Positions 2,564 to 25,855 are shown, numbered from the stretch's first letter. The stretch: DNA of 64,000 nt from an uncultured Acidobacteriota bacterium (GCA_963837055.1 CAWILU010000003.1:199524-263523), one strand, 5' to 3'. The notes: generated from the letters alone by a model not told the origin. Program-made: numbers and translations.

Positions 2564-2570
2564 CGGCAAG

Positions 2571-4400: not shown

Positions 4401-4505
4401 TGCTGACCCTACATTTGCCTTGATACTCGGCGAAGCCAGCGGTCTGCACGGACGATAGACAACGCAAGAGGCGTGAGAGGGCAGCGGGGCAATTATCGAA
4501 CTCCA

Positions 4506-6643: not shown

Positions 6644-6752
6644 GGTGGGAGTGGTCGGACCAGCGCCATGCTAAAGGCTGAACCGGACCACTCTTGGAAC
6701 ATGCCTATCGAGGAGGTCGATCCGGCCGAAAGGACCCGCCGAGTGGGCGTGG

Positions 6753-9687: not shown

Positions 9688-9866
9688 GTCGGCACCGGGG
9701 AGAACTGGAGACTCCTGTGAACCACCCCGGCAGTGCAGAGTACTAGCGGAGAAATCGCTTCAAATGACTCCCTACGCGACTCTCCAAGACCAATGGTCTG
9801 GCCGGCGGAGACTTGGAAAATCCGAAGGAACGAAGAGGCGGTTCCAGGTGAGGGGTTCGCCGAGAT

Positions 9867-10052
9867 CTATTCCACTGTTGTGGGGGTCTCAGTGTCCGGT
9901 GATGGCTCGCCTTCAACCTTCTTGGGAGACTTACCTGTCACCTTCTGCCAGTAGTAACGCCCGGCAACGCCGATGGCGGCGACGCCGCCCACGATGATCT
10001 GGAGCACCATGCTCCCGGTTCCGGGGTCGAGGTAGGCAAGGACGAGTTTCAT
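9867..10052 (-). CDS. Small membrane protein (61 aa) with an N-terminal LDPGTGSM motif
   Basis: MKLVLAYLDPGTGSMVLQIIVGGVAAIGVAGRYYW: one TM helix and a charged tail. GAAGGGA Shine-Dalgarno-like sequence 7 nt upstream. Confidence 0.5.
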   Translation of the reverse strand: MKLVLAYLDPGTGSMVLQIIVGGVAAIGVAGRYYWQKVTGKSPKKVEGEPSPDTETPTTVE

Positions 10053-10092
10053 GAGTGAGTTTCCCTTCGTTCATCGGGAGGATACCCCTGGG

Positions 10093-10112
10093 ACCGGGAT
10101 TTGTAACCGGGA
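10093..10112. promoter_or_regulatory. Direct repeat ACCGGGA-N6-ACCGGGA in a divergent intergenic region
   Basis: Read directly: gggACCGGGAtttgtaACCGGGAgtgg, between the small membrane gene (-) and the GT2 gene (+). Confidence 0.2.
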
Positions 10113-10145
10113 GTGGTTCCTCCACCGCTCCTACCCTGATCTCCG

Positions 10146-11297
10146 ATGCTCAGGTTCATCGTCCAACTGGCCCAGACCGCCCTGATCGCCCTGGCCGGCT
10201 ACAACGCGGTGACCGCGCTGTGGGGCTGGCGGAATCGGGTCCCCTCGCCGGTCTCCGCTCGGAGGCGGGCGCTTCGGGTGGTGGTGCCGGCCCATGACGA
10301 GGAAGCGGTGATCGCCAAGGTGGTCTCCGATCTTTCCGATTCGGACTACTCCTCCAAGCAGATCTGGGTGATAGCCGACCACTGTTCGGACTCGACTGCC
10401 GAGATTGCTGGTGGTCGAGGTGCCAATGTGGCCGTCCGGTCCGAGGGACCGCCGGGTAAGGGGGCGGCTCTCGCTTGGTACCTGGGCCAGCACCCTCTGG
10501 CCGCGGACGAAGCCCTGGTCGTCTTCGATTCCGACAATCGAGTCCCTGCCACGGCATTGGGCCGGATCGCCGATGAGATCGAGGCCGGTCACGAGGTGGT
10601 GCAGTGCTATCTCGACGTGGCCAACCCGGACGGCTCCCTGATGTCGGAGGCGTCCGCCCTGTCCTATTGGGCAGGGAACCGAATGGTGCAGCTGGCCCGA
10701 TCCAACCTGGGCTGGTCGGCCGATCTGGGTGGGACCGGGATGGCGCTCACCGGAGCCGCACTGGAGAGGGTCGGGGGTTTCGGCGACTCGCTCACCGAGG
10801 ATCAGGAGCTGGGAGCGAGGCTGGTCCTGGCCGGGATGCGGGTGGAATGGCTCCACGACGTGAGGATCGAGGACGAGAAGCCGGATTCGGTGGCGGTCGC
10901 GGTCCGGCAACGGGCCAGGTGGATGGCCGGCAAACGCGAGGCTTCACGAAAGCACCTCGCCGCTCTGGTGAGCCAGGGCTCCCCCGCCTCGCTAGACCAG
11001 GCTCTTCGCCTGGTTCAGCCCGGGCGCTCTTTCGTCGCTCTGGTTTCGGCGGTCATGACCGTCCTCGCCGGCGTCACAGGTTCCAAATGGTTCCTTCCCT
11101 GGCAGGTGTGGGGCCTGGCCACCGCGGTGCAGGTCCTGGAGCCCATCCCCTTTCTCGCCCGGGAAGGTGTCGAACCAAAGCGCATCGTCCGCTACCCGGT
11201 ACTGGTGATCCTGGCCGGGCTTTGGCTGCCGATACGTTTTCTCTCGGGGCGGGTGCGGAGCTGGTATCACACCCCGCACACCGGGCCTAGCTCCTGA
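10146..11297 (+). CDS. Membrane-embedded family-2 glycosyltransferase, synthase-like (D, DxD, Q-x-x-R-W motifs)
   Basis: 383 aa. N-terminal TM, VVVPAHDEE, VVFDSDN, TEDQELG, RQRARW, then C-terminal TM helices. This architecture matches processive beta-glycan synthases. Confidence 0.8.
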   Translation: MLRFIVQLAQTALIALAGYNAVTALWGWRNRVPSPVSARRRALRVVVPAHDEEAVIAKVVSDLSDSDYSSKQIWVIADHCSDSTAEIAGGRGANVAVRSEGPPGKGAALAWYLGQHPLAADEALVVFDSDNRVPATALGRIADEIEAGHEVVQCYLDVANPDGSLMSEASALSYWAGNRMVQLARSNLGWSADLGGTGMALTGAALERVGGFGDSLTEDQELGARLVLAGMRVEWLHDVRIEDEKPDSVAVAVRQRARWMAGKREASRKHLAALVSQGSPASLDQALRLVQPGRSFVALVSAVMTVLAGVTGSKWFLPWQVWGLATAVQVLEPIPFLAREGVEPKRIVRYPVLVILAGLWLPIRFLSGRVRSWYHTPHTGPSS

Positions 11298-12327
11298 GGC
11301 TTCGAATCGGGCCCGGGCCACGAATGAGGCCCCAGACCATGCCGATCCCGTAGGCGAGATGCATGATCCCGGCTGCAATCAGCACGAGGGCCGGCGAGGT
11401 CTGGCTGCGGGTCGCAACCCAGATCAGCAGCAGTGCCCACGCACCCGAGATCACCACGATCGGCCACCAGACCCCGTTGCCGACACCAACGATCAGGCCG
11501 GAGAGAAGACCCAGGACGAGTAGCAGCGGGGCGAGGGGCCGGACTGAGGGGAGCTCGCCATTGAGCCAGAGCATCTCCGCCTTGCCCTGGCCATAGCGCA
11601 GATACTGACGCCACAGCGCACCCGGCGTGTCACGTGGCCGGTAAGTGGACAAGATCGCTGGGTCGACGAAGACGGTCCGACCCGAGACCCTCCATCGGTA
11701 GTAGAAGTCGGCGTCCTCTGACGTCCCCGACGGGAACGGTCGGAACCCGCCCAACTGCTCGAAGCCTGACTTCTCGAAGGCGCCGAGATACACCGTGTCG
11801 ACCTGCTCTCTGGTGGTGGCGTGATGGAACCGGCCGGGACCCATGGTCAGTGGGCTCGCCATGGCGGCCGTCACGGCTCGCCCGAAGTCGCTCTCGCCTG
11901 AGGGCCTCATCCGCCCACCAACGGCAGCGTCCAGCTCCTCGATGGCTTTGATCGACTTGCTGACGTAGTCGGGGGCATACCGGGTATGGCCGTCCGCCCT
12001 CACCAGGATCGAGCCGGAGGAGGCCGCTGCTGCCAAATTGAGTCCGAATGCCTGGCGTCGATCCGGGTTGTCGATCACCTTCACCCTCGACTCACGGTTC
12101 ACCCAATTGTCCAGCTTTGCCTTGGTCCCATCGGTCGATCTGCCATCGGCGACTATCAACTCGAGTGGGCCGGGGTAGTCCTGGGCCATGATGTCGCCGA
12201 TCACGTCATCGATGAGATCGACCTCATCCAGGATCGGGAGGATGACGGATACGGAGGGCTCGGTCGCCACGGGCCGGTGAGGATATATCCCGGTGTGGTC
12301 GAGCAGGGATCTAGCGTTCTCGTCCAT
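11287..12327 (-). CDS. Family-2 glycosyltransferase with C-terminal TM helices
   Basis: SVSVILPILDE...IVADGRSTDGT...RADGHTRYAPDY. The ORF stays open to 12648, but that extension is antisense to the methyltransferase gene. Likely starts are ATG 12327 or GTG 12270. Confidence 0.75.
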   Translation of the reverse strand: MDENARSLLDHTGIYPHRPVATEPSVSVILPILDEVDLIDDVIGDIMAQDYPGPLELIVADGRSTDGTKAKLDNWVNRESRVKVIDNPDRRQAFGLNLAAAASSGSILVRADGHTRYAPDYVSKSIKAIEELDAAVGGRMRPSGESDFGRAVTAAMASPLTMGPGRFHHATTREQVDTVYLGAFEKSGFEQLGGFRPFPSGTSEDADFYYRWRVSGRTVFVDPAILSTYRPRDTPGALWRQYLRYGQGKAEMLWLNGELPSVRPLAPLLLVLGLLSGLIVGVGNGVWWPIVVISGAWALLLIWVATRSQTSPALVLIAAGIMHLAYGIGMVWGLIRGPGPIRSLRS

Positions 12328-12915
12328 ATGAGCGCCGACCGGGAGTACACCGCCCGACTCGAGAGGGAGACTGCGAAGGGCTGGAAGAGGGCGCTCGGGG
12401 CCCAGGCGCCCTACCGCCGTCACATTCGGAGAGTGGTCGAGGGCAGGGTCCTCGATGTGGGGTGTGGCATCGGGCGCAACCTCCATCATCTCGACGGTCA
12501 AGGCGTCGGCGTGGACATCAATCCACACTCCGTCGAAGTGGCACGGAGCAACGGTCTCACCGTCTACACGGTCGAGGAATTCGAGAGCGGGCCAGACGCG
12601 GCTCGGGGCGAGTACGACACTCTCCTCTTCGCCCATGTCCTCGAGCACATGACCCAGCCAGAGGCTTCATCCCTGCTCGGTGCCTATCTTCCCTACCTCC
12701 GGACCGGGGGCCGGCTGGTGGTCATCGTTCCCCAGGAAGCCGGGTTCAAATCGGACGCGACCCATGTCACCTTCCTCGATCTGGCCGACCTCGGTGTCCT
12801 GGAGGAGGAGCATGGCTTGGTCCGGGAGACCGGGTACTCCTTCCCGCTTCCCCGGTCGGCCGGTCGTTTCTTCACCCACAACGAGACGGTGGCGATCTCT
12901 CGCAAGGCTCACTGA
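12328..12915 (+). CDS. Small class I SAM-dependent methyltransferase (type 11-like)
   Basis: VLDVGCGIGRNL...DTLLFAHVLEHM...GGRLVVIVP. I chose the ATG at 12328; the ORF-track N-terminal extension from 11986 is antisense to the GT2 gene. Confidence 0.7.
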   Translation: MSADREYTARLERETAKGWKRALGAQAPYRRHIRRVVEGRVLDVGCGIGRNLHHLDGQGVGVDINPHSVEVARSNGLTVYTVEEFESGPDAARGEYDTLLFAHVLEHMTQPEASSLLGAYLPYLRTGGRLVVIVPQEAGFKSDATHVTFLDLADLGVLEEEHGLVRETGYSFPLPRSAGRFFTHNETVAISRKAH

Positions 12916-12957
12916 GGTCTCTCTAAAGCGGCTGGACGCGCCCTTATCCTGCCGGTC

Positions 12958-14296
12958 GTGCGTCTTCCCCGTCCTGCCCTGCCTGGTTGGCTGCTCGCCG
13001 CCACGGCGGCGATCCCCGTCTTCGTGTGGTGGCTGGGCTGGTACCCGGGGTTCGGCTCATCCGACACCATCGATCAGTTCGGCCAAGTCGCCGAGCGGGA
13101 CCTATTTCAACCATCACCCGGCGATCCACACCCTGTACCTCGACATCCTCAGCCTCGGTGGGGCGAGACCGGGGTTGGTCGCTCTCGTCCAGTTGGTCGT
13201 GCTCGGCGTACTCCTCGCCTATGCCGCCTGCTGGCTGGTCGAAGCTGGGGTGCCGCTCTGGCTGGCCATCGGCACCGCCTGGCTGCTCGGGCTCTCCCCC
13301 GCGGTGGCCCCGACCACCCTGGCCCTCTGGAAAGACGTTCCCTTTGCCCTGTTCATGCTCTGGGCCTGGATCGAGCTCCTCGCCTTCGCCCTCGACCCGG
13401 ACCAAGCCTGGCGACCGTGGCCCGCGATCCGACTCGGGCTGGCTCTGGCCGGCGTGTGGCTATTCCGGGGAAACGGGCCGATCACGGTTCTCCTCGTCCT
13501 TCTGGCCCTGGCGTGGGTCTACCGCAGAAAGCTGCGCGTGGTCGGGATCACTACCGGCACAGCTGTCGTCGTCGTCTTCCTCACGATCGGACCGCTGTAC
13601 TCGGTCCTCGATGTTCAAGGGGCAAGCATCGAACCGGCCCAGGTGTTCCTGCCCGACGTCGCAGCCTCCTACAACGACGAGCCGGAGACCTTCACGGAGG
13701 CGGACGTCGACATGCTGGAAGCGATCGCCCCGCCGCTCATCTGGAACACCGAGTACGACTGCTACGACAGCACTCCCCTCCTCTTTCACCCGATGTTCGA
13801 TCAGGTCCCGGTCAGGGAGTCGCCGGGGGACTATCGGGCCCTCGAGGTCGATGTCCTGCTCCGTGACTTCGACACGGTGCTGAGCCACCGTCTCTGTGCG
13901 GCGAACTTCGTCTACGCCCCGAACCAGCCTGCCGATGCCTACTTCCATCGCCCGCCGTACGACTTCCCCCCCAACGATCTGGGTCTCGCCAGGGCTCCGG
14001 TGCTCGGGATCGCTTTCGACGTCACCGACCGGATCTGGCGCTGGGCCGAGATCGACAGCAGGCTGTGGCTCACCTGGAGACCCGCCATCGTCCTCCTCCC
14101 TGCCCTCGCCGCGGTGGTCGTGTTTGCCTTTCGGGCCCGGCGCCTACTCCTTCCGTCTGCCCTCCTGGTCGCTCACACCCTCAACGTCATGGCCACCTCC
14201 CCGGCCCAGGAATTCAGGTACGCCTACCCGCTCTACCTGATGGCGGCCCTCACCCTCCCCTTGCTCTGGCCGATGCTCCGAAGGCCACCCCTCTGA
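12958..14296 (+). pseudogene. Polytopic membrane protein, GT-C-like glycosyltransferase/polymerase candidate, one +1 frameshift
   Basis: N-terminus in ORF 12958 (MRLPRPALPGWLLAATAAIPVFVWWLGWYPGFGSSDTIDQFGQVAE). It continues in ORF 12680 frame (GTYFNHHPAIHTLYLDILSLGG..., followed by more than 8 TM segments). Shift near 13096. Confidence 0.6.
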
Positions 14297-14416
14297 CACC
14301 GTGCTTGCTGCAGCCTGATCGAACCCAGATCCACTGTGGGAATGGCCCCGTGACGGCGACGTCGCGGAGGTTCAGGTTGTTACCCTGCCCGAGATCTCAG
14401 CGCCAGACCAGGAGAC

Positions 14417-15595
14417 ATGATCATGAGGAGAATCACCAGGCTTGTGCTCACCCTCGCCGCGGTGACCGTCGGCTTGTTCATCGGAGCCGGCACTCTCGCC
14501 GCGCTCACCCTCAATTTCTCGGGCACCATCGACGGGTCCGATCCGACCATGCCGGTGGTGTTCATCACCTCGCCGGTTTGCACCAGCCAAGGAGTGACTC
14601 CCGTCCACTATGAGGTGATCGAGTTGGTCCGCCCCCTTCCCGGGACCCATGTCATCGATGTGACCAGCACTGCTGACTTCGCCTCGGCCTATCTGTACGA
14701 AGGGAGCTTCGACCCGGCCAATCCGCTGGAGAACTGCGTGGCGGCCGACAACAGCGGCCCCATCCAGATCACCTACGACTTCGTCCGCAACACCCCGTCC
14801 TATTTCCTGGTCGTCTTCGATGACACCGGCGCACAACTTGGGGGCGACTATCAGGTAGTGGTGAACACGCCGGACCCGCCGCCCAGCACTGTGGGTTTGG
14901 TCGACCCTGTTTCGGGTGAATGGCATCTGCGCAACCAGGTCGGTGCTGTCACCACCTTTGTTTATGGAAACCCGGGCGATGTGCCTTTCATGGGCGACTG
15001 GGACTGTGACGGGGACGACACACCGGGGCTGTTCCGCACCTCCGATGCCTTCGCTTACCTGCGCAACGCGAACTCTCAGGGGATCGCCGACATCCGGTTC
15101 TTCTTTGGCAACCCCTCCGACATCCCATTGGCCGGCGACTTCGACGGAGACGGGTGTGACACCCTCAGCATCTACCGACCCTCCGAACAACGGTTCTACA
15201 TCGTCAATGAGCTGGGTGCTAACAACGGTGGCCTCGGACCAGCGGAGTTCTCGTTCGTTTTCGGAGACCCCGGGGACAAGCCATTCGTCGGTGATTTCGA
15301 TGGCGACGCGATCGACGAGGTCGGACTGCATCGGGAGTCGACCGGGTTCGTCTACTACCGCAACACCCTGACCACCGGCATCGCCGACAACGAGTTCTTC
15401 TTCGGAGACCCTGGAGACCGATTCGTAGCCGGAGACTGGGGCATCGTGGACCGGGTGGAGACTCCCGGCGTGTTCCGACCGGCGGCCATCACCTTCTACT
15501 TCAGGCACACCAACACCCAAGGCAACGCCGACAGCAGTTTCGCCTTCGGCATCCCAAGCTGGTTACCCGTCAGCGGAGACTTCGGCCTCGGCTAG
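14417..15595 (+). CDS. Secreted protein: unknown N-terminal domain + 4.5x FG-GAP-like repeat module
   Basis: Signal/TM MIMRRITRLVLTLAAVTVGLFIGAG. The repeats are of the form [FY]G[ND]PxDxPxxGD[WF]DGDGxDTxxxYR. Confidence 0.8.
   Translation: MIMRRITRLVLTLAAVTVGLFIGAGTLAALTLNFSGTIDGSDPTMPVVFITSPVCTSQGVTPVHYEVIELVRPLPGTHVIDVTSTADFASAYLYEGSFDPANPLENCVAADNSGPIQITYDFVRNTPSYFLVVFDDTGAQLGGDYQVVVNTPDPPPSTVGLVDPVSGEWHLRNQVGAVTTFVYGNPGDVPFMGDWDCDGDDTPGLFRTSDAFAYLRNANSQGIADIRFFFGNPSDIPLAGDFDGDGCDTLSIYRPSEQRFYIVNELGANNGGLGPAEFSFVFGDPGDKPFVGDFDGDAIDEVGLHRESTGFVYYRNTLTTGIADNEFFFGDPGDRFVAGDWGIVDRVETPGVFRPAAITFYFRHTNTQGNADSSFAFGIPSWLPVSGDFGLG
14897..15592 (+). repeat. Coding repeat module (about 4.5 FG-GAP-like blades), copy 1 of 3 in the window
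   Basis: YGNPGDVPFMGDWDCDGDDTPGLFR / FGNPSDIPLAGDFDGDGCDTLSIYR / FGDPGDKPFVGDFDGDAIDEVGLHR / FGDPGDRFVAGDWGIVDRVETPGVFR / FGIPSWLPVSGDFG. Confidence 0.8.
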
Positions 15596-15863
15596 ATCGA
15601 GGGCGGATATCTCACGGGCTGAGGCATACCGTCCCTTTGGCGGCTGATACGGCTGTCATAGCCTGCGCTCCCACTCGGGACGGTGGCGACCCCCGCCTTG
15701 TCGACACCAGGCTCTGCTTCTCCTCAGATGCGAGCCACTTTGATTCCGAAGGAGAACAGGGCCGCGGAACCCATTGAGTTCCGGCGACGTTCGGACGAAA
15801 CAATGTGCTGCCGGGTGCACGGGGCATGCCGGCGGAGCGGTTATCGAATTCGGGTAGGGGTAA

Positions 15864-17000
15864 ATGAAGACGAGAGGGATTGTTCGGCCACGTCTCAGAC
15901 ACGTACTCGTGGCCGTGCCGATGAGTCTCATCCTGTTGGCCGTGCCGGCCACTTCCGCGGTCGCCCTGCCCGACGATGGCTTGACCCCGAAAAGCATGTT
16001 CCTCGACCTCGGCGGCGCGAGTGCCGAGGAGATCGCTGCCCGGGTCGACCGAATCTGCTCCGAGCACCGAGATCCCAGCAACGACGGCTACATCGCGAAC
16101 GTCGTCATCGTGGGGGTCCTCGACCAGCGAGGTGCCCTTCGCGTGGACCAGCTGCTCGCAGTCCTCCCCCATGTCCCTGGCGGCGGACGCAAGACATGCT
16201 TTGACAACGTGTTCATCGGCCCAACCCAGCTCGACGGGTCAGGGCAACCGTGGAAGAGCCGGGCAGACTTCCCCGGTGGGCTCGAGGCTTGGTGCGCCGA
16301 CAGCCTGTACTGCGGCGGGATCCTCACCCCTTCGTGGCGATGGGACAACATCGCAGCAAATCGACGAGCGGCAGATCAGTTTCTGGCATTCGTCGACTTT
16401 CATTTCCCGGGCGTCCGAAACACCTTGAACTGGTATATGACCTACGAGGGCTACTTCGACTGGATGGGCGGGAACCGCTACAGCGACGGCATCGCCTCGG
16501 CATACACCGCCTACATGCTCGAACTCGTCAAGACCTTCAACGATGCGCTCCAATACGCCGGTGAGCAACCCCAGACTTCCAGCCGGTCCGTGCTCTGGTC
16601 GCCCGCCTATGCCAATTCCTACTACTCGCACTCACAGCTTCAGCTGAACAACATTCGGGACAACCTCCGCACGGTCTTTCAGAACGTCCAGACAATGGCC
16701 GCCGGCGAAGGGATTGCCCGCGGGGTGGACTGGCTCGACATGCAGGACAAACTCGGCCAGACCGATTGCTTTTCGTTTGACTGCTACAGCGGCGTCAAGC
16801 ACTGGTATGACTTCCTCACCACCGTCAATTACGAGCAGTTCGCTTTTGCCAGTCTGAGGGTCAATATGGAGTTGTTCTCGACGAACCTGCCGGTGCCCGA
16901 CCTGAACGAGCAAATGGCCCGCCAAAACTTCTACGAGGCCAATGGCATCCCGATCGGAGCTTCGTGGGAGCTCCGGTTCTGGGACAGGCCCTCACTCTGA
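15864..17000 (+). CDS. Secreted hypothetical protein, possibly glycoside-hydrolase-like
   Basis: 378 aa with a signal peptide (VLVAVPMSLILLAVPATSAVA). Trp/Tyr-rich (NWYMTYEGYFDWMGG). The function is inferred only from its glycan-locus context. Confidence 0.5.
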   Translation: MKTRGIVRPRLRHVLVAVPMSLILLAVPATSAVALPDDGLTPKSMFLDLGGASAEEIAARVDRICSEHRDPSNDGYIANVVIVGVLDQRGALRVDQLLAVLPHVPGGGRKTCFDNVFIGPTQLDGSGQPWKSRADFPGGLEAWCADSLYCGGILTPSWRWDNIAANRRAADQFLAFVDFHFPGVRNTLNWYMTYEGYFDWMGGNRYSDGIASAYTAYMLELVKTFNDALQYAGEQPQTSSRSVLWSPAYANSYYSHSQLQLNNIRDNLRTVFQNVQTMAAGEGIARGVDWLDMQDKLGQTDCFSFDCYSGVKHWYDFLTTVNYEQFAFASLRVNMELFSTNLPVPDLNEQMARQNFYEANGIPIGASWELRFWDRPSL

Positions 17001-17056
17001 GCGGCGAGCTCGCCGACCCCGGCTAGCCCAACTGGCTTGCGTATCCTCACCGGTCG

Positions 17057-18190
17057 ATGGGGCCCGAAACAAACTTGCCGACGCCGGTCGCCTCGGTGAC
17101 GGTCATCACCACCGTTTTCAACGAGGGGCACGGCGTGATCGACATGCTCGACTCGGTGATGACGGGCAATGTCGTGCCTGCCGAGGTTGTAGTCGCAGAC
17201 GGCGGGTCCACCGACGGCACGCTGCGACTGCTCGCCGACTACGCCCGAGCTCATCCCCAGGTGAAGCTGTTGACCGACACCGGCGGTCGATCAGCGGGCC
17301 GAAACGCCGCGATCGAAGCCGCGAGCCACGACCACATCGTCTGCATCGACGGGGGCTGTGTCGCCGAGCCGGAATGGCTCGGAGAGATCAGTGAGCCGCT
17401 GCTCGCCGGGAGTGGGTGGGTCGGCGGCTTCTACCGTCCCCGGGGTGACACCGCGCTCTCGACTGCGATCGGACTGACGATGGTCTTCGTCGAAGAGGAA
17501 GTCGTGCTCCCCTACTTCCTGCCGTCGGCCCGATCCATGGCGTTCCATCGATCGCTGTGGCGGGAGGTCGGCGGGTTCCCCGAGGACGAGCAGTTCGCCG
17601 AGGACACGTCGTTCGGATACGCGCTGCTCGCGGCAGGCCACGCGCTGGTGTTCAACCCGCGCGCGGTGGTGGCGTGGACGCCCCCGTCCAGCTTGTTGGC
17701 CCAGGCCCGGACCCTGTTCGCCTGGGGACGGGGGGACGGACGTCTCGGTTTGCGCTCGGTCTACTACCAGCGACTCTTCGTCCAGGGCCTCCTCGCATTC
17801 GCCCTGCTCATCGTCGGGATCTTCTATCTGCCCCTACTTGCTTTCGGCATCCTCGGGTTGGCTGCCGTCGTCGTCTACAAGAGCCGGATGAAACTCCGCC
17901 ACATGGACGGGTGGCTGAAGTGGCTCCTCATCCCTCTGGCGACCGTCAACGGGCTCGTCAGTTCGCTGGCCGGGTTCATCAGAGGCGACCTGGAGCGAAG
18001 GTCCCGGAGACGTAGACCGCCGGTGGCGTCAGCCGACCAGCAGCTGCCCTCGGTCGCCGAGCCGGTCGAGAAGCGGGGCGACCCTTCGACCCCAGTGCGC
18101 GGCCAAAGCATGCCGACGCAGGTCGAGCCTCTCGCCGGGGGTCAACGCGAGGGCGGTGTCGATCGCGGCGGCGAAGTCATTGGGGCCTGA
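17057..18190 (+). CDS. Family-2 glycosyltransferase with C-terminal TM region
   Basis: VTVITTVFNEG...VVADGGSTDGT...GRSAGRNAA...CIDGG...FAEDTSFG. The last ~55 codons overlap the convergent GT4 gene, so the true 3' end is uncertain. Confidence 0.7.
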   Translation: MGPETNLPTPVASVTVITTVFNEGHGVIDMLDSVMTGNVVPAEVVVADGGSTDGTLRLLADYARAHPQVKLLTDTGGRSAGRNAAIEAASHDHIVCIDGGCVAEPEWLGEISEPLLAGSGWVGGFYRPRGDTALSTAIGLTMVFVEEEVVLPYFLPSARSMAFHRSLWREVGGFPEDEQFAEDTSFGYALLAAGHALVFNPRAVVAWTPPSSLLAQARTLFAWGRGDGRLGLRSVYYQRLFVQGLLAFALLIVGIFYLPLLAFGILGLAAVVVYKSRMKLRHMDGWLKWLLIPLATVNGLVSSLAGFIRGDLERRSRRRRPPVASADQQLPSVAEPVEKRGDPSTPVRGQSMPTQVEPLAGGQREGGVDRGGEVIGA

Positions 18191-19174
18191 AGCCGTATCG
18201 ACGGCAGGCTCGCTGACACAGGCGGGCAGAGGCGTACCGACCATCGGGACCCCGCATGCCAGGTACTCGTACATCTTGAGCGGAGTCACCGCCTCCGTCA
18301 TCTCGTCGACGATGAACGGAAGGATGCCGACTTTGAAGCCACGGACGAAGTCGGCGATCTGCTGGGACGGCTGGGCCGGAATGAGGGTCACATTGCCCTG
18401 TTGCCGCAGTTCTCGAGCCTGATCTCTCACTTCGGGGTCGACCGGGCCGACCAAGACGAAGTCGAGCTCAGGCCTCAGGCCGGCCACGGCGTCAAACAGC
18501 TCGAAGTCGAACCATGGCGCAAGGGCACCGTGATAGCCGACGACCGGACCCTCGGGGAGGGCGTCGGCGATGGGCCCCACAGAATCGAAGCGATCCACGT
18601 CGACCCCGTTCTCCACCAGCAGCATGTCGGGACGCTCCGCCCGGTGCCGGTCGACGAGGACCGGGTTGGATGCGATGACGACATCGGCGCTCTCCACCAG
18701 CGGCCCGTGATGATGTCTCACCGTCCGGGCTCGAGGCATTCCGTCCTCCATGGGCTCGTAGATGGCCAAGTCGTCCAGGAGGTCGTAGACCACGACCCGA
18801 TCGGCGTAGCGGTCGATGAGAGTGCGAGTGGGGGCGAAATGGGTGTAGACGATCACACCCGAGCGTGGCGTGTCCCGGATCGAGGGGACCAGGTGGATCC
18901 GTCCTTCCACCACACTCGACTCGCCCAGACGCGGGTCGACGAACCACACCTCATGACCGGCCGCGGCAAGGGCCTCGAGCAAATACTGAGGGCGCTGCTT
19001 CATCGTCTCCCAGCCCAGCCAGGTAGGGAGATAGACCACCGGCCGCAGAGATCCGGGCCGTGGGACCGGGCCGCGCGGGTAGTCGTACATGCGATCGCGC
19101 AGCTCCATTGCCCCTGGAAGCCGCTTTAGCGCTCGCTTCACCCGACCGGGAACGACGGAGACCACACGGTTCAT
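18029..19174 (-). CDS. GT-B (GT4/TuaH-like) glycosyltransferase
   Basis: KQRPQYLLEALAAAGHEVWFVDP...GYHGALAPWFDFEL...LPF...TPLKMYEYLACGVPMV. I chose the ATG at 19174 (MNRVVSV), 4 nt after the upstream stop. The ORF track extends to 19246. Confidence 0.75.
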   Translation of the reverse strand: MNRVVSVVPGRVKRALKRLPGAMELRDRMYDYPRGPVPRPGSLRPVVYLPTWLGWETMKQRPQYLLEALAAAGHEVWFVDPRLGESSVVEGRIHLVPSIRDTPRSGVIVYTHFAPTRTLIDRYADRVVVYDLLDDLAIYEPMEDGMPRARTVRHHHGPLVESADVVIASNPVLVDRHRAERPDMLLVENGVDVDRFDSVGPIADALPEGPVVGYHGALAPWFDFELFDAVAGLRPELDFVLVGPVDPEVRDQARELRQQGNVTLIPAQPSQQIADFVRGFKVGILPFIVDEMTEAVTPLKMYEYLACGVPMVGTPLPACVSEPAVDTASGPNDFAAAIDTALALTPGERLDLRRHALAAHWGRRVAPLLDRLGDRGQLLVG

Positions 19175-19178
19175 CGAC

Positions 19179-21455
19179 TCACTCGTTCTCCGACGGTAGG
19201 AAGTCACCGTCGCCAGGCGTGGTATCCACTCCGGATTGTGCGGCAAAGCCTTGGGCGAGGCCGTTGTGTCCTACCACCGGCAGCAGGCCACGGTCGGCGA
19301 GGCCGAACCCGATGACGTGATCAGCGACGCCCTGGGTGTTGGAGAGGCGGATGTACCAGTTGCCGTCGGACGGCCGGAAGATGGCCGGTGAGTCGCTTCC
19401 GTCACCATCCCAGTCGGCGGCCACGAGGAAGTCGCCGGGGTCCCCATAGATGAAATCTCGGTCTGCCCTACCCGTGGTCAGGCTGAACCGGAAATAGACC
19501 CGGCCCGTGGACTCCCGATGGAGACCCACCTCATCGAGCCCATTGCCGTCGAAATCGCCGACGAACGGCTTGTCTCCGGGGTCGCCGAACATGAAGGAGT
19601 GCTCGGCGAAGCCGAGCCCGGCATCTCCGGCGCCCAACCGGTTGATGACGTAGAACCGCTGCTCGGAAGGGCGATAGATCGACAGCGTGTCGCACCCATC
19701 CCCGTCGAAGTCGCCCGGGATCGGGATGTCGCTCGGATTGCCGAAGAAGAACTTGATGTCGGCGACTCCCTGGGAGTTGGAGTTACGGAGATAGGCGTAA
19801 CCGTCCGAGCGCCGGTAGAGGCCGGGGGTGTCGACTCCATCGCAATCCCAGTCACCCATGAAGGGCGTGTCCGCCGGGTTGCCATAGAAGAAGTTCGACT
19901 CAGACGAGCTCCACGCCACCTCGTGAGCGAGGCGCCAAGACCCGCCTTCATCCACGTACCCGATCTGATCGCACGCCCCGACGCACAGCGGCCCGGCGTC
20001 GAACGTGTTCGGCCCCGGGTTGGTGAACCAGGACCCGAGGTTGGCGATGGCGCGATCCGGGACACCGCCGAGCCAGACCGAGACGCGGCCGCCCGACAAG
20101 ACGTACAGATCGACACGGCCGTCCCCATCGAAGTCTCCCGGAAGCACCGACGAATCGCCGGCGACCGTCATCGAGGTGTTCAGTCGCTGCGGGCTCCCGC
20201 CATAACCACTTGCCCAGAGGATCACATCGACCCGGGCGTTGGCGCCCGAGCCCACCAGCCAAATGTCGGTATTGCCGTCGACATTGCGGTCGGCGAGGAC
20301 GATCTTCGAGCTCCCCACGGGGACGGTGAGATTCGAGGTGTGGGCCAGTTGCTGATAGCCGGATGCAGACGAGTACACCTCGACCCGGCCCGTGTTACGC
20401 CGGAACACGTAGAGGTCCGGGATCCAGTCGGCCTGGTCGAACAGGGCCAGGCCCAATTCGGCATCGGCCGACCAGGTGGCGCCGGTAGTGACTTGTTTGC
20501 CGACAGTGCCGAATCGGGACCGGTCGTAGTAGACGTCAGCCGTGATGTTGCCCCCGGTGTTGAAGCGCCAGAGGTCGGCGCGGCCATCACCATCGGCATC
20601 GGCGAACATCGGGACACCGTCGCTTGGAGCGCCGCTGGTCCATCTGAGACCGAGCACCCCGAACCGTGCCCCTGCCCCGGCGACCTGCACCTGCCAGCGA
20701 CCGTTCACCGGAACCAATCCGTACAGGTCGTCGGCACCATCTCGTCGCTTGCCAGACATGGCGAGGGCGCCGGCGCCCCCGAGGGCCGATGGGCCCTCGA
20801 CGGCCCTGGTTGTGAAGCTTGCTGCCGCAGTCAGCGGGGCATAGGGCGCGATCCGAGCCATCAGACCGGCCCGGGCCGCAGGGCCGCGCCACGAGTAGTG
20901 CATGCTGTCCTTGCTGAACCGCCAGGAACCGCCCCAGCAGAATCCGGCCGAAATCCATGCTTCCCGGTAGGCCGGCGGCATGTCCGTGATCAGTTGCCCA
21001 TTGGTGACCGGGTTTTGCGGCGGGTTGATATCGAGGGCATTGGCGACGGCGTGATGTGACATCTGGTTGCTGCCCGCGATGTTGCGCCAGGCCCAGGCAT
21101 CGCCGGTCCTGATGGTGTATCCCACGCCGGAGGCATTGATCCGCTGAGCTGCGCCCTGGAAGGAGGCGAGGGCCCTGCCATGAACGCGGTATCCGTGGCC
21201 GGAGGGATCGACCCAGTTGACCAGCGATGAGGACACCTGGCCGAAGTTTCGCCCGAAGTAGTCGGCAAACGGGCCGTATATGCGATCACCCAACCGATTG
21301 GACGGGCTGAGCGGCCCCCTCATCCCATAGACCCCGCAGCTGCTCGACTCGGTGAAGTTCGGGGTGGAGTCTCCCGCGGTCGACGATGCGCCATATGCAG
21401 GGGAGGCCAGGGCCAGAAAAAGGGCGAGGGCGATCGGAATCCGCTTCATAACCAA
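19179..21455 (-). CDS. Secreted peptidase M15-like cell-wall hydrolase + FG-GAP/VCBS region + C-terminal 4.5x repeat module
   Basis: Signal peptide MKRIPIALALFLALASPAYG. M15 motifs SHHAVANALDI and DSMHYSW. Central DADGDGRADLW / GDFDGDGRVDLY FG-GAP repeats. The C-terminal module is paralogous to 14897-15592. Confidence 0.75.
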   Translation of the reverse strand: MVMKRIPIALALFLALASPAYGASSTAGDSTPNFTESSSCGVYGMRGPLSPSNRLGDRIYGPFADYFGRNFGQVSSSLVNWVDPSGHGYRVHGRALASFQGAAQRINASGVGYTIRTGDAWAWRNIAGSNQMSHHAVANALDINPPQNPVTNGQLITDMPPAYREAWISAGFCWGGSWRFSKDSMHYSWRGPAARAGLMARIAPYAPLTAAASFTTRAVEGPSALGGAGALAMSGKRRDGADDLYGLVPVNGRWQVQVAGAGARFGVLGLRWTSGAPSDGVPMFADADGDGRADLWRFNTGGNITADVYYDRSRFGTVGKQVTTGATWSADAELGLALFDQADWIPDLYVFRRNTGRVEVYSSASGYQQLAHTSNLTVPVGSSKIVLADRNVDGNTDIWLVGSGANARVDVILWASGYGGSPQRLNTSMTVAGDSSVLPGDFDGDGRVDLYVLSGGRVSVWLGGVPDRAIANLGSWFTNPGPNTFDAGPLCVGACDQIGYVDEGGSWRLAHEVAWSSSESNFFYGNPADTPFMGDWDCDGVDTPGLYRRSDGYAYLRNSNSQGVADIKFFFGNPSDIPIPGDFDGDGCDTLSIYRPSEQRFYVINRLGAGDAGLGFAEHSFMFGDPGDKPFVGDFDGNGLDEVGLHRESTGRVYFRFSLTTGRADRDFIYGDPGDFLVAADWDGDGSDSPAIFRPSDGNWYIRLSNTQGVADHVIGFGLADRGLLPVVGHNGLAQGFAAQSGVDTTPGDGDFLPSENE
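19270..19967 (-). repeat. Coding repeat module, copy 2 of 3
   Basis: YGNPADTPFMGDWDCDGVDTPGLYR / FGNPSDIPIPGDFDGDGCDTLSIYRPSEQRFYVIN / FGDPGDKPFVGDFDGNGLDEVGLHRESTG / YGDPGDFLVAADWDGDGSDSPAIFR. Long stretches are near-identical in protein to copy 1. Confidence 0.8.
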
Positions 21456-21534
21456 CTATCTGATGCAGGGCGTCACGAATACGTGATGTACTGCATTCGG
21501 ATGGGGCCCGGCTGAGGGTACCCACGGGCCGGAT

Positions 21535-22632
21535 TCATGAAACATCGACCAAACGACGCTCGGATCGGTTGAGATCGTCGACGCCTGACGGGCCGCAGGC
21601 CACGATGTCCTCGATTCTGACCCCGAATTCCTGGGGAAGGTAGATGCCCGGCTCGATCGAGAAGGTCATCCCCACTTCCAGCTCGAGGTCGTTCCCCTCC
21701 ACCACGTACGGGTGCTCATGGACCTCCAGACCGATCCCATGCCCGGTGCGATGGATGAAGTACTCCCCGAACCCGCCGTCCTCGATCACCTGCCGGGCCG
21801 CCCGATCGATGTCCTGACACACGACGCCCGGGGCGACGATGGAACGGGCTGCCTCATTGGCCGCGGCCACCAGGGCATGCACTTCGACCTGTCGAGGTGA
21901 CGGCTCGCCGACCACGAAGGTCCGGGTGGTATCGGAGTGATAGCCACCCACTCGGCCGCCGAAGTCGCACACGACCAAGTCCCCGCCCTGAACCACCCGA
22001 TCCGATGGCTCGTGATGCGGCGAGGCCCCATGAGGGCCGGAGGCGACGATTGGTGCCCAGGCAGAGTCGTGACCTTCGGCGATGGTCATGTCGCTCAGGT
22101 CACGGGCGATCTCCCGCTCGGTCCGTCCCTCAAACCTGATTTCCCGGGGCACCCTGGCCACCACGCGGTCGGTCGCTGTTGCCGCCCGGCGCAGATGCTC
22201 GATCTCGGCATCTTCCTTCCGCATGCGCAACGGCCCGGTCAGCTGCGATGCCAGCGACCAAGTCGTGTCGGTCATCTCGGCCTGCAGCCCGATCAGGAAC
22301 GTCGACCAGGTGTGATCGCCAACAGCGGCCCGCCGCGTCGCCCCGGCCGCCCTGACCACGAGACGGATCGGATCATCGGTCTCCGCCCACGGGATGAGTT
22401 CGAATGGGCCCGGTTCGACCCGGGGCGCCTCCAGCTCGGGTACGAACAATGCGCAGTCACCGTCGGCAGGGACGACCAGCATGGTTAGACGCTCCAACGG
22501 CACCGCCTCGTAACCGGTGAAGTAAGGGAGGTCAGAGCCCGTCGACAGCAACACCACGTCGACTGATTGGTCCTTCATCTGCTCCTGGAGACGGCCCACG
22601 CGAGCGCTGTAGTCGAACGTGGGAGCGATCAT
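21535..22632 (-). CDS. M24 family Xaa-Pro aminopeptidase/dipeptidase
   Basis: 365 aa. Has DFGGRVGGYHSDTTRT, HRTGHGIGLEVHEHPY and SIEPGIY metal-ligand motifs. Confidence 0.85.
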   Translation of the reverse strand: MIAPTFDYSARVGRLQEQMKDQSVDVVLLSTGSDLPYFTGYEAVPLERLTMLVVPADGDCALFVPELEAPRVEPGPFELIPWAETDDPIRLVVRAAGATRRAAVGDHTWSTFLIGLQAEMTDTTWSLASQLTGPLRMRKEDAEIEHLRRAATATDRVVARVPREIRFEGRTEREIARDLSDMTIAEGHDSAWAPIVASGPHGASPHHEPSDRVVQGGDLVVCDFGGRVGGYHSDTTRTFVVGEPSPRQVEVHALVAAANEAARSIVAPGVVCQDIDRAARQVIEDGGFGEYFIHRTGHGIGLEVHEHPYVVEGNDLELEVGMTFSIEPGIYLPQEFGVRIEDIVACGPSGVDDLNRSERRLVDVS

Positions 22633-22642
22633 CTCGGTGGGT

Positions 22643-24106
22643 CTACCGGGCCATGGGCACGAGCCCGGCCAGCCCCACTCCGGCGTCGAGAGTCACGTCG
22701 GCAGGACCATTGCCGTTCGAGTTCTTGACGTAGAGGAGGCCGTTGCCTGGCCGGTACACCGCAATGGTGTCCGTGCCGTTGGAGTCCCAATCCCCGGCGA
22801 TCAGTCGGTCGCCCGGGTCACCAAAGATGAACTGCGCGTCGGCCGCGCCTCCCTCGTGCGCATTGTTCAGATACACATTGCCTGTCGAGGGTCGATGTAG
22901 ACCTACCGTGGCGATGCCATCGCCGTTGAAGTCACCTACGAACGGGACGTCCGAGGGGTTGCCGAAGGCATAGGAGTGCTCGGCGGGGCCTAGTCCGCCC
23001 CCGTTCAGACCGAGATCGTTTATCACATAGACCCTCTCCTCGGAGGGCCGGTAGATCGAAACGGTGTCCAGCCCGTCCCCGTCGAAATCCCCGGCAAGGG
23101 GCACGTCGCCCGGATTGCCGAAATAGAAAGTGATGTCAGCCACCCCTTCGGTGTTGGAATTCCTCAGATAGACGAATCCATCGGATTGGCGGTAGAGGCC
23201 GGGGGTGGCCACGCCGTCTCCATCCCAGTCGCCAGAGAAGGCGATGTCGTTCGGGTTGCCGTAGTAGTAGGCGCTCGTCTGATGCTCGTGGTTGATCTGA
23301 TCCCACAGATAGAAACGCGAGCTTCGGTCGTAGAAGGCGACGGTGTCACAATTGCCACCCGGGCACGGGGCGGGGCCGCCAACCGGCAGCGTCCGGCCCG
23401 GGGCGTAGACCGGGCCTACGCCGGCAGGCTCGAACCAGACATGCACCGGCAGCCCGATCCAGAGCTGGCCTTCCAGCCAGGAGCTGTCCCACATCGTGAG
23501 ACGGATGCAGCCGTGAGAGGCCGGGAAGGCGGGCACGCTGGGCGAGCCATGGAGGGCGTACCCCCCGGTGAAGTACCACGGATTCCACAGGACGCCGAGG
23601 AATGAGATCCGCTCGCCACGGATATGGCGCTGGATCCGAAAATCACCGGTCGGGGTGTGGGCCTGGCTGAAGCTGCCGAACTGGTTCGTGTAGGCCTCCC
23701 CGTTCCCCGAACTGATCGGGAACACCTGGTCCAGGACGCCCCCTTTGAACAGATAGGCAACCTGACGGGTCAGATTGACCTCCACCCGGTCGGGCTCGTT
23801 GAACCGGAATGGGGTCCACGGCTTCACGTAGGTGTTGAGCAAGCCCCAGAGCGAGTCATCCCAGTTGAAGCTGCGGCCCGCCCCCACTTCCTTGCGAAAG
23901 GCCATGACCGCCTGTTGGGTTTGCGGCCCGTAGCTGCCGTCGATGGCGCCGCGGTAGAAACCGGTATCGGTGAGCGCCTGTTGCAGCGTCGCGGTGGCAG
24001 CGTCCTGGGTGCCGAACTCTGACGGGTCGGCCGCGGCCGGAGCGACGAGCACCGACCCCAGCAACAGGATCGAGACGACACTCGCAGCAAGCCCTCTGCG
24101 CAACAT
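22643..24106 (-). CDS. L,D-transpeptidase (YkuD) with N-terminal peptidoglycan-binding domain and C-terminal 4.5x repeat module
   Basis: Signal peptide. PG_binding-like LTDTGFYRGAIDGSYGPQTQQAVMAFRKE. YkuD catalytic motif HGSPSVPAFPASHGCIRL. C-terminal repeat module. Confidence 0.85.
   Translation of the reverse strand: MLRRGLAASVVSILLLGSVLVAPAAADPSEFGTQDAATATLQQALTDTGFYRGAIDGSYGPQTQQAVMAFRKEVGAGRSFNWDDSLWGLLNTYVKPWTPFRFNEPDRVEVNLTRQVAYLFKGGVLDQVFPISSGNGEAYTNQFGSFSQAHTPTGDFRIQRHIRGERISFLGVLWNPWYFTGGYALHGSPSVPAFPASHGCIRLTMWDSSWLEGQLWIGLPVHVWFEPAGVGPVYAPGRTLPVGGPAPCPGGNCDTVAFYDRSSRFYLWDQINHEHQTSAYYYGNPNDIAFSGDWDGDGVATPGLYRQSDGFVYLRNSNTEGVADITFYFGNPGDVPLAGDFDGDGLDTVSIYRPSEERVYVINDLGLNGGGLGPAEHSYAFGNPSDVPFVGDFNGDGIATVGLHRPSTGNVYLNNAHEGGAADAQFIFGDPGDRLIAGDWDSNGTDTIAVYRPGNGLLYVKNSNGNGPADVTLDAGVGLAGLVPMAR
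22646..23350 (-). repeat. Coding repeat module, copy 3 of 3
   Basis: YGNPNDIAFSGDWDGDGVATPGLYR / FGNPGDVPLAGDFDGDGLDTVSIYRPSEERVYVIN / FGNPSDVPFVGDFNGDGIATVGLHR / FGDPGDRLIAGDWDSNGTDTIAVYR. Confidence 0.8.
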
Positions 24107-24181: not shown

Positions 24182-25855
24182 TCAGCAGACGACACCGACC
24201 GCGTCCCGGCTCTCCTTGGCGTGGTAGCTAGAGCGGACCAGCGGGCCGGATTCGACGTGAGGGATGCCCAGGCCCTCTCCGTACTTCTTGTACTCCCCGA
24301 ACTCCTCTGGGTGGACATAGCGGGCGATAGGTCGGTGTCTCGGGGTGGGTCGCAGGTACTGGCCAATGGTGATGATGTCGATGCCCACCGCACGCATGTC
24401 GGCCAGAGCGCCGAGCACTTCCTCCCGGGTCTCCCCCATCCCGACGATGAGCCCGGACTTGATGAGCCCATCGGGGTTCATCTGCTTCGCACGCCAGAGC
24501 AGCGCCAGAGATCTGCCATAGCTGGCCGAAGTCCTGATGTCGCGCTGCAAACGGAGCACGGTCTCGGTGTTGTGGTTGAGCACCTCAGGCACCGCGTCCA
24601 TCACGGTCTGCAGGGCCTCACGATCGCCTTTGAAGTCGGGGATGAGCACCTCGATCTCGGTTCCCGGGGATCGGCGTCTGCTCTCGGTGATGGTGTGGGC
24701 GAAGATCCCGGCCCCCCCGTCATCGAGGTCGTCCCTGTTCACCGAGGTGATCACGGCGTGCTTGAGGTTCATCTGATGGATCGCCTCAGCGGCCCGGAAC
24801 GGCTCGAATACGTCGAACTCAGTGGGTTTCCCGGTGGTCACATTGCAGAAGGAGCAAGCCCTGGTGCATTTATCCCCCAAGATCATCAGAGTGGCGGTCC
24901 CCATGCCCCAGCACTCGTAGATGTTGGGGCAATTCGCCTCCTCGCACACCGTGTTGAGCTGCAGGCCGCGCATCATCTTCTTCAACTCGATGTAGTCGCC
25001 GTCGAGCCGGGCCGTCACCTTCATCCAGTCTGGGCGGGGCGGCTCTCCGGGGAGACGCCCGTTGATGAGAATCGGCTCCGCGCTTCGCTTCTCCGGGCTG
25101 AACGTCCCCGACTCGACCAGCCGATCGACCTCGAACTCGGGACGCCGACCCTGGCCTCGTGCGAAGGCCCCCAACTGGATCTCTGTCTCGGGATAACCGA
25201 AGACCTCCTCGAAACGAGGGATCAGCGCCCGGGTCGCCTCCTCGAGAGTGACCTTCCTCCCCACCAGATCAGACAGCGTCGTGACCGGGCGATCGGAGAT
25301 CCCACACGGGTTCATCATCCCGAAATAGGTGAGGTCGGGGTGGAGGTTGAGCGCGAAACCGTGCATCGTGACCTTCCGCGCCACCCTCACACCAATGGCT
25401 GCCACCTTGCCGCTTGCCGTCCACACTCCGGTCAAACCAGGCTCGGCCCAGGCCTCGACTCCGAAGTCGGACAAGGTTGCGATCAGGGTCTGCTCGAGCC
25501 GCCGCACGTAGGGGACGATCTGCTTGGGGTCGTCGAGGGTCAAGATCGGGTATCCGACCAGCTGACCGGGGCCGTGGAACGTGATGTCGCCACCCCGATC
25601 GACGTGGTGGACCTCGACCCCGAGGCCCACCCGATCGACGAGGAGGTTCGAGCCGTCACCATTCCTCCCGATCGTGAACACCGCTGGGTGCTCGAGCAGC
25701 AGGAGGTAGTCGTCCGTCGTACGCCCGACCACTTTCCCCTCGTGGATGGCGCGTTGCAGATCCCACGCCTCGGTGTAGGGAAGGCGGCCCAGCCAGCGGG
25801 TGCGGAGAATCTCGTTTTGCGAATGGTCAGGAGTCAAGCCAGCTCCTGCTCCCAA
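24182..25855 (-). CDS. lipB-lipA: Octanoyltransferase LipB fused in one ORF to lipoyl synthase LipA
   Basis: 557 aa. LipB part (aa ~15-222): HPAVFTIGR...DRGGDITFHGPGQLVGYP...KVAAIGVRV. A ~45-aa linker follows. LipA part: NTVCEEANCPNIYECW...CTRACSFCNV radical-SAM clusters...RSSYHA. Confidence 0.8.
   Translation of the reverse strand: MGAGAGLTPDHSQNEILRTRWLGRLPYTEAWDLQRAIHEGKVVGRTTDDYLLLLEHPAVFTIGRNGDGSNLLVDRVGLGVEVHHVDRGGDITFHGPGQLVGYPILTLDDPKQIVPYVRRLEQTLIATLSDFGVEAWAEPGLTGVWTASGKVAAIGVRVARKVTMHGFALNLHPDLTYFGMMNPCGISDRPVTTLSDLVGRKVTLEEATRALIPRFEEVFGYPETEIQLGAFARGQGRRPEFEVDRLVESGTFSPEKRSAEPILINGRLPGEPPRPDWMKVTARLDGDYIELKKMMRGLQLNTVCEEANCPNIYECWGMGTATLMILGDKCTRACSFCNVTTGKPTEFDVFEPFRAAEAIHQMNLKHAVITSVNRDDLDDGGAGIFAHTITESRRRSPGTEIEVLIPDFKGDREALQTVMDAVPEVLNHNTETVLRLQRDIRTSASYGRSLALLWRAKQMNPDGLIKSGLIVGMGETREEVLGALADMRAVGIDIITIGQYLRPTPRHRPIARYVHPEEFGEYKKYGEGLGIPHVESGPLVRSSYHAKESRDAVGVVC

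Follow-up and report, generated by a model that had tools for sequence, protein, structure and literature searches.

Why do three secreted proteins with unrelated N-terminal parts end in the same module? This question was raised by a 64,000-nucleotide stretch of DNA from an uncultured bacterium labelled Acidobacteriota (GCA_963837055.1 CAWILU010000003.1:199524-263523; the whole stretch is referred to as the window), in which the three genes lie between positions 14,417 and 24,106. An earlier reading of the sequence (the original prediction) had proposed the module as a candidate targeting domain for a wall glycan. Our analysis favours, with a probability of about 0.5, a portable five-bladed propeller with Ca2+-type loops and a disulfide staple, which would bind wall carbohydrate in a lectin-like manner and so keep secreted proteins on the envelope of their producer. 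We infer both the ligand binding and the surface retention from the comparisons presented below.

Three secreted proteins end in one module

The proteins, their domains and the module copies are located in the window as follows.

14417-15595, + strand: protein 1, 392 residues; N-terminal signal or transmembrane helix, beta-sandwich head like a PPC/collagen-binding domain, propeller module
about 14507-14890, + strand: head of protein 1, placed by its homologues, an AlphaFold2 model and Foldseek
14891-15592, + strand: module copy 1, predicted five-bladed propeller; cysteine pair present
19179-21455, - strand: protein 2, 758 residues; Sec signal peptide, Peptidase_M15_4, FG-GAP_3 region, propeller module and a tail of 25 residues
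about 20892-21077, - strand: Peptidase_M15_4 of protein 2 (Pfam, E 7.7e-11)
about 20046-20678, - strand: canonical FG-GAP_3 region of protein 2, residues ~260-470 (Pfam)
19257-19964, - strand: module copy 2, the sequence that was modelled; cysteine pair present
22643-24106, - strand: protein 3, 487 residues; signal peptide, PG_binding_1, YkuD, propeller module
about 23894-23998, - strand: PG_binding_1 of protein 3 (Pfam), a separate N-terminal domain outside the module
about 23438-23791, - strand: YkuD L,D-transpeptidase of protein 3 (Pfam), catalytic cysteine in 'SHGCIRL'
22646-23341, - strand: module copy 3; both cysteines of the covarying pair absent

The last ~230-235 residues common to the three proteins aligned with 54-66% identity and a mean column identity of 71%, and tblastn comparisons between the copies gave E-values of 1e-70 to 1e-94. 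A fourth copy was not detected by tblastn in the window. All three translations begin with a signal-peptide-like segment; the Zn-ligand motifs of the M15 domain in protein 2 ('SHHAVANALD' and 'DSMH') and the catalytic 'SHGCIRL' of YkuD in protein 3 are intact. Both the three open reading frames (ORFs) with their common C-terminal module and the heads assigned to them in the original prediction were confirmed, the latter by Pfam matches to Peptidase_M15_4 and true FG-GAP_3 repeats in protein 2 and to PG_binding_1 and YkuD in protein 3. The proposed block of ~230 residues was recovered as well; only its start, as given by the repeat pattern, had to be moved ~25 residues upstream to a conserved 'VGxVDxxGxWxLR', and the full module comprises ~235 residues.

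Stretches that are nearly identical between copies 1 and 2, likewise pointed out earlier, are present in the alignment. Where the protein identity of copies 1-3 reaches 85-90%, identity at third codon positions is only 0.4-0.6. This rules out gene conversion behind the near-identical stretches of copies 1 and 2, which therefore reflect purifying selection. Judged by their codons, copies 1-3 are old paralogues.

The module lies outside the described anchoring families

No significant match to the module was obtained in Pfam or NCBIfam, and neither phmmer nor a profile hmmsearch against all PDB sequences returned a PDB match. LysM, SLH, CWB1, CWB2, SH3b, GW, WXL, SPOR, PGB1 and ChW were all without a Pfam or NCBIfam match on the module. 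In protein 1 the module reached 14.3 bits with FG-GAP (cut-off 22.1) and in protein 3 it reached 15.3 bits with FG-GAP_3 (cut-off 26.9), each the sole FG-GAP-type match of the protein. The FG-GAP match of protein 2 was also sub-threshold (16.7 bits); its FG-GAP_3 match was above threshold, with the best stretch in the centre of the protein (residues 390-452). The sub-threshold FG-GAP matches on the module fall on its Asp-rich Ca loop. The choice between FG-GAP/VCBS and a novel family, left open in the original prediction, could thus be answered, as the cut-offs of FG-GAP and FG-GAP_3 (PF01839 / PF13517) were not reached on the module.

Among 143 family representatives, an FG-GAP_3 match at 1e-5 was found in only four. 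Profile-level kinship with canonical FG-GAP repeats was not supported, as hhalign gave a probability of only 12% against the FG-GAP_3 region of protein 2. We found no existing description of the module in the literature, and a 2018 catalogue of monoderm wall-attachment domains holds no propeller or FG-GAP domain (PMC5817068). The claim that the module stands outside any described anchoring family was borne out by the Pfam, NCBIfam and PDB sequence searches together with this catalogue. On the model described next, the module belongs to the FG-GAP structural class (integrin-alpha / PVL / UmbA4), in which its sequences form a separate family without annotation.

A predicted five-bladed propeller with asymmetric conservation

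AlphaFold2 was run on copy 2 with an alignment of the three window copies and 56 homologues. The model (pLDDT, the predicted local confidence, 94.4; pTM, the predicted template modelling score, 0.90) contains 20 beta-strands, and we read it as a complete, closed propeller of five four-stranded blades. Blade count, closure and the placement of conserved residues were deduced from the secondary structure and the repeat register of the sequence: a three-strand N-terminal segment ('VGxVDxxGxWxLR...F') is followed by four full repeats of ~47-52 residues and a final 'LPVxG' strand, and 20 strands with 0.5+4+0.5 sequence repeats therefore make five blades. In the model the closing blade consists of the three N-terminal strands and the C-terminal strand. 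This construction from both termini confirms the 'velcro' closure of the original prediction, whose count of 4.5 blades is replaced by five complete ones. The original prediction had also expected a small beta-propeller with loops of the Ca2+ type; AlphaFold2 and Foldseek agree with it in a small, FG-GAP-like propeller, whose loops read DxDGDG.

Within one module the blades are 39-48% identical to each other. Four of them contain the loop D-[WF]-D-G-D-G-x-D, in which one residue of the integrin motif DxDxDGxxD is missing, and on this pattern the loops presumably bind Ca2+. Two cysteines stand in loops of adjacent blades ('DWDCDG' and 'DGDGCDT') and covary: both occur in 291 and neither in 48 of 341 unique modules, with only two modules having a single one. 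The pair, kept in 86% of family members, would form a disulfide linking the two loops. Ca2+-type loops and the cysteine pair fit an extracytoplasmic domain.

The blades are conserved to very different degrees. Mean column entropy was 0.71 bits in blade B, 0.93 in blade C, 0.97 in blade D and 1.71 in blade E, and 1.5-1.8 in the closing blade (A); additionally, blade C has a unique, nearly invariant insertion ('N.LG...GGLGAA'). The fold places the same constraints on all blades, yet B-D are far more conserved, which points to a functional surface on B-D and to a ligand conserved throughout the class. This asymmetry over equivalent blades and the invariant insertion of blade C argue against a structural or stabilising Ca2+ domain without a ligand, serving as folding aid, spacer or protease shield and spread by domain shuffling. 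Most of the conserved residues do look like fold and Ca-loop residues, as such a domain would have them, and altogether we regard this explanation as improbable.

The closest structural match is a wall-polymer lectin

The top Foldseek match of the model in the PDB was UmbA4 (9oee_A, E 5.5e-7, 17% identity) with a TMq (template modelling, TM, score) of 0.56. It was followed by ITFG2, integrin alpha, Bap1, the fungal N-acetylglucosamine (GlcNAc) lectins PVL (2bwr) and AAL2 (4tqm) and the BBS propellers; the matches of the FG-GAP class had probabilities of ~1.0 and TMq values of 0.4-0.56. A tachylectin-2-like five-bladed lectin was considered and rejected, since none was among the top 50 structural matches, and a viral fold library gave nothing specific for the module. 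The entry 9oee is UmbA4 of the Streptomyces coelicolor umbrella toxin with S. griseus teichuronic acid bound; its six-bladed propeller, with Ca2+-type loops conserved from blade to blade, binds the wall polymer in the canonical pockets between blades (PMC13274773). As far as the model goes, wall-glycan targeting as originally proposed thus has a lectin for a cell-wall glycopolymer as its closest structural counterpart.

UmbA4 and the module have in common an actinobacterial origin, secretion, an FG-GAP-like propeller, conserved loops of Ca2+-type pattern and a C-terminal position, as a targeting domain in UmbA4 and as a putative one in the module. They differ in blade number (six in UmbA4, five in the module), with 17% identity and without a match at the level of sequence profiles. 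Among PDB sequences, none of a characterised lectin family (PropLec classes; UmbA 5BP, 6BP and 7BP) matched the module significantly. Integrin-alpha, FG-GAP and VCBS propellers (PF01839, PF13517; PVL, AAL2) share the fold class, the four-stranded blades and a DxDxDG-type loop pattern; they have seven blades of ~60 residues as opposed to five of ~47 residues in the module.

Since integrins, ITFG2 and BBS proteins are protein-binding FG-GAP propellers and rank among the top structural matches, the module could instead dock onto a surface scaffold, an S-layer or a membrane protein in the way dockerins bind cohesins, with no carbohydrate involved. Ca2+-type loops are typical of dockerins too, and the diverse heads described below would be as natural in docking as in wall anchoring. 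Against this, the highest-ranking match is the wall-polymer lectin, no conserved partner gene was seen beside the module genes in related loci, and fusions to LytR-CpsA-Psr (LCP), YkuD, M15, M23 and SpoIID domains favour direct placement in the wall. We consider protein docking rather unlikely.

A large family on secreted proteins of Acidimicrobiia

When 1.84 billion cluster representatives (clusters at 50% identity) were searched with a profile of the module, 29,379 proteins matched at E<=1e-3, of which 20,995 did so at E<=1e-10 and 7,245 at E<=1e-30. Among protein database entries and GTDB genomes, those matching best came almost all from metagenome-assembled genomes with the label Acidimicrobiia or Actinomycetota. 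The module was confirmed in at least 518 genomic stretches, with several copies per genome and paralogues that are often clustered. We treat the genome of the window, too, as one of Acidimicrobiia. Some contigs with 56-88% identical modules (L001, L012, L013, L026, L040, L042, L047 and P0007 in our numbering) carry the labels Acidobacteriota, Kiloniellales or Halobacteriales; labels other than Acidimicrobiia probably reflect placeholder taxonomy or mis-binning.

Architectures were studied in 79 related loci, where ORFs taken in the tblastn frame yielded 94 module copies and 76 complete ORFs. The module formed the extreme C-terminus in 42 complete ORFs, the mature N-terminus in 24 and an internal or other part in nine; in one ORF it stood alone. 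N-terminal modules begin a few residues past the predicted signal-peptide cleavage site. The statement that the module ends its proteins therefore applies to the three proteins of the window and not to the family, in which 24 of the 76 complete ORFs start with it once the signal peptide is removed. The order is swapped to module, PG_binding_1, YkuD in a relative of protein 3 (L053). Two or three module genes lie side by side in 15 loci.

The commonest layout of the N-terminal class is a signal peptide, the module and a C-terminal region of ~300 residues (L009, L010, L019, L029, L037, L040, L041); in L010, the one member scanned individually, this region had no Pfam match. Giant members with 3432 (P0121), 1796 (P0130) and 1200 residues (P0122) gave 6-10 separate module-profile matches each, suggestive of modules in tandem or of extended arrays of such blades.

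Every partner domain that was recognised is extracytoplasmic. These domains include PD40 and DPPIV_N propellers, Big_9, cadherin-like, PKD and Calx-beta repeats, subtilases, trypsins, beta-helix, GSDH and CAP domains and, in a single case, a Bmp-type substrate-binding protein of an ATP-binding cassette (ABC) transporter. Enzymes acting on wall or envelope polymers were found on about 16-17 of 70 genome-derived proteins, about a quarter: VanW, SpoIID and M15_4 (three each), YkuD, M23 and LCP ligases (two each), and one PGA_cap and one beta-lactamase-like domain. This survey of partner domains supports the view of the module as portable: the secreted heads that carry it are unrelated to one another, and many are enzymes of the envelope. 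One conserved module, independent of position, thus occurs on many unrelated secreted heads and in several paralogues per genome. Placement at either end together with promiscuous heads is as expected of an autonomous targeting domain.

The same partners bear on a target outside the producing cell. With a toxin-targeting lectin as the closest structure and with proteases, beta-helix and pectate-lyase-like domains and adhesin-type repeats among the partners, the module might act like a carbohydrate-binding module on environmental polysaccharides or particles, or like an Umb lectin on other bacteria. Heads that work on the cell's own wall (YkuD, M15, LCP, SpoIID, VanW) would make no sense on a foreign target, and the fused trypsin domains retain TAAHC and GDSGG and are thus active proteases, unlike the inactive scaffold of UmbA. 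Moreover, Umb lectins are hyper-diversified (PMC13274773), in contrast to the unusually conserved module. A foreign target appears quite unlikely.

In the toxin particle, hyper-variable UmbA lectins serve the recognition of other species and sit on an inactive trypsin scaffold; the module differs in being highly conserved, in its place on housekeeping-type envelope enzymes and in its catalytically intact trypsin partners. UmbA-like toxin spokes were considered for the trypsin-type members and rejected, as all ten keep at least one catalytic motif and seven of the ten have TAAHC as well as GDSGG. According to Pfam, none of the window proteins contains a trypsin domain. Nothing resembling the Umb partners UmbB and UmbC was found among the annotated neighbours in the window, all of which belong to glycan synthesis or housekeeping.

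The module takes the place of a sorting tag on the head of protein 1

Only 18 database homologues were obtained for this head, a domain of ~115 residues. Its model is a beta-sandwich (AlphaFold2, pLDDT 90), for which Foldseek returned the Tk-SP C-domain, the collagen-binding domain of ColG, C-CPE and PliG; the predicted structure resembles a non-catalytic domain of the PPC/collagen-binding type. PEP-CTERM and IPTL-CTERM are dedicated cell-surface sorting tags. After the same head, proteins from other phyla have PEP-CTERM (P0278, 23.5 bits, cut-off 20.7) or IPTL-CTERM (P0280, 22.5 bits, cut-off 20.8). The propeller module fills this slot in protein 1, which is independent circumstantial evidence for surface retention and also speaks against a ligand-less domain. 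The likeness is one of position, as PEP-CTERM and IPTL-CTERM are short transmembrane sorting signals cut by dedicated sortase-like enzymes and not folded binding domains.

The homologues of the head (P0267-P0284) constitute a small and rare family of PPC-like beta-sandwiches with two invariant cysteines that is spread over several phyla. Other C-terminal ends in this family are a Thr-rich linker ending in 'PAFTG' or 'RFTG' and a Cys-containing domain of ~75 residues without a Pfam match.

Linkage to the glycan locus is a property of the M15-type gene

Pfam annotation placed a glycan biosynthesis locus, for a wall or surface glycan, in the first part of the window. It contains fragments of epimerases/dehydratases for nucleoside diphosphate (NDP) sugars, methyltransferases, three glycosyltransferases of family 2 (GT2) and one of family 1 (GT1).

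1-19246, strand unspecified: glycan biosynthesis locus
366-18190, strand unspecified: wall or surface glycan biosynthesis genes of this locus
5786-6643, in the glycan locus: uridine diphosphate N-acetylglucosamine (UDP-GlcNAc) 2-epimerase
8123-9687, in the glycan locus: ABC-2 exporter pair
12680-14296, in the glycan locus: DUF6020 membrane protein
18029-19174, - strand: GT1-family glycosyltransferase (Pfam)
21535-22632, - strand: M24 Xaa-Pro-type peptidase without signal peptide, between proteins 3 and 2; also present in the syntenic locus L001

The gene of protein 1 lies between the DUF6020 gene and a GT2 gene. The stop codon of protein 2 (19181-19179) is 4 nucleotides from the likely ATG start of the GT1 gene at 19174, which has a GGAG upstream. 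On the other side of protein 3 follow a lipB-lipA fusion and 2-oxoacid dehydrogenase genes, with housekeeping genes beyond. All three genes had been described as lying in or next to the glycan locus; this is correct for proteins 1 and 2, and protein 3 lies outside, cut off by the gene of the cytoplasmic M24 peptidase, which is probably an unrelated housekeeping passenger.

Orthologues of the M15-type gene were found in eight loci, in seven of which a GT1 homologue follows immediately downstream in the same direction; in the eighth, an ABC-2 pair (61-66% identity) is adjacent. The closest genome locus (L001, CAVTFV010000006.1; module 88% identical) is fully syntenic with the window. Conserved linkage is limited to this gene, and most module genes do not lie near homologues of the glycan genes of the window. 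GT1 linkage is thus tied to the M15-type gene and does not characterise the module in general. Among the M15-type orthologues the module is 56-88% identical, always above the enzymatic head (31-79%). Better conservation of the module than of the heads across the class suggests that its ligand is conserved too, and not specific to one locus.

These data bear on a narrower form of the favoured reading, put forward in the original prediction, in which the neighbouring, ABC-transporter-dependent locus would supply the glycan that serves as ligand. The gene of protein 1 lies within that locus, protein 2 is translationally coupled to the GT1 gene, the M15-module/GT1 pair was kept in seven of eight genomes and replaced by a neighbouring ABC-2 exporter pair in the last, and the CWB2 proteins with the PSII locus of C. 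difficile may serve as a precedent (PMC4973711). The linkage holds only for the M15-type gene, though, and could reflect the function of the head instead of that of the module; most module genes lie elsewhere, and protein 3 is outside the locus. We see the locus glycan as a possible ligand, with more doubt than confidence.

Further genes of the window were annotated alongside. A secreted-type protein of 378 residues with a hydrophobic, signal-peptide-like N-terminus and no Pfam match is encoded between protein 1 and GT2 (15864-17000, + strand); it has a 75%-identical homologue in the syntenic L001 and is perhaps an undescribed member of the glycan pathway. Within the glycan locus, an ORF of 609 residues (2571-4400, - strand) combines an S-adenosylmethionine (SAM) methyltransferase with a sub-threshold protein-kinase/RIO-like region. 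The LipB-LipA fusion ORF of 557 residues (24182-25855, - strand), composed of a LipB-type octanoyltransferase (LplA-B_cat) and the LipA lipoyl synthase (LIAS_N and Radical_SAM), is directly upstream of the 2-oxoacid dehydrogenase E2 and E3 genes. At 45369-46829 (- strand), among housekeeping neighbours, a putative glycosyl hydrolase (DUF4015) is preceded by a CarboxypepD_reg-like domain.

Discussion

According to the reading that we favour, Acidimicrobiia would tag many secreted proteins with the module, either at the mature N-terminus or at the extreme C-terminus, and it would hold them non-covalently on the producer's own envelope. The ligand would be a conserved wall carbohydrate, either a secondary wall glycopolymer or the glycan of peptidoglycan, bound mainly by the strongly conserved sector of blades B-D. 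In the window, the module would bring together an M15 enzyme of the DD-carboxypeptidase type and an L,D-transpeptidase, of which the former may make the tetrapeptide donors that the latter uses for cross-linking; this pairing of donor generation and cross-linking is drawn from established peptidoglycan biochemistry. The non-catalytic, PPC-like protein 1 would be put in the same wall compartment.

Several observations weigh against a wall-binding lectin. The TM-scores of the Foldseek matches are modest (<=0.56) and protein-binding propellers (integrins, ITFG2, BBS proteins) are among them; the PDB sequence searches detected no homology to a characterised lectin or anchor. Many heads, such as GSDH, PD40 and proteases, need no wall attachment in themselves. 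In addition, roughly 70 of the 79 related loci have no homologues of the glycan genes of the window nearby.

In its logic the module is comparable to SLH domains, which bind pyruvylated secondary cell-wall polymer (SCWP), and to CWB2, which binds PSII (PMC4973711). There too, one module is found on many unrelated secreted heads (amidases, proteases, adhesins) and in many paralogues, and its genes can adjoin the polymer biosynthesis locus. SLH and CWB2 have no kinship with the module in sequence or fold and form three-fold pseudo-trimers, not propellers, and their ligand binding is proven, whereas we infer it for the module. New here is a very large, lineage-specific family in which an established fold class would be put to an already familiar functional use.

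A bolder version, which we put forward only tentatively, is a class-wide non-covalent display system of Acidimicrobiia, not described before, in which a disulfide-stapled, Ca2+-dependent five-bladed propeller lectin would tie a large part of the secretome, from wall-remodelling enzymes and LCP ligases to proteases, adhesins and dehydrogenases, to a conserved secondary wall glycopolymer made by a locus of the ABC-2/GT1/DUF6020 type as in the window.

Soils, sediments, wastewater and oceans all contain abundant Acidimicrobiia, but hardly any have been cultured, and next to nothing is known of their envelope biology. If the module is a general tag for surface display, its sequence signature would allow the surface proteome to be predicted throughout the class. 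A five-bladed FG-GAP-type propeller would be a new fold among Gram-positive wall anchors and the functional counterpart of SLH/SCWP or CWB2/PSII in a lineage with almost no cultured representatives. As a compact lectin scaffold that depends on Ca2+ and has a defined ligand in the bacterial wall, it could also be used, for instance, to label or capture cells that are not in culture. Finally, it would connect the anchoring of proteins to a cell's own wall with the propeller lectins by which Streptomyces umbrella toxins recognise foreign walls.

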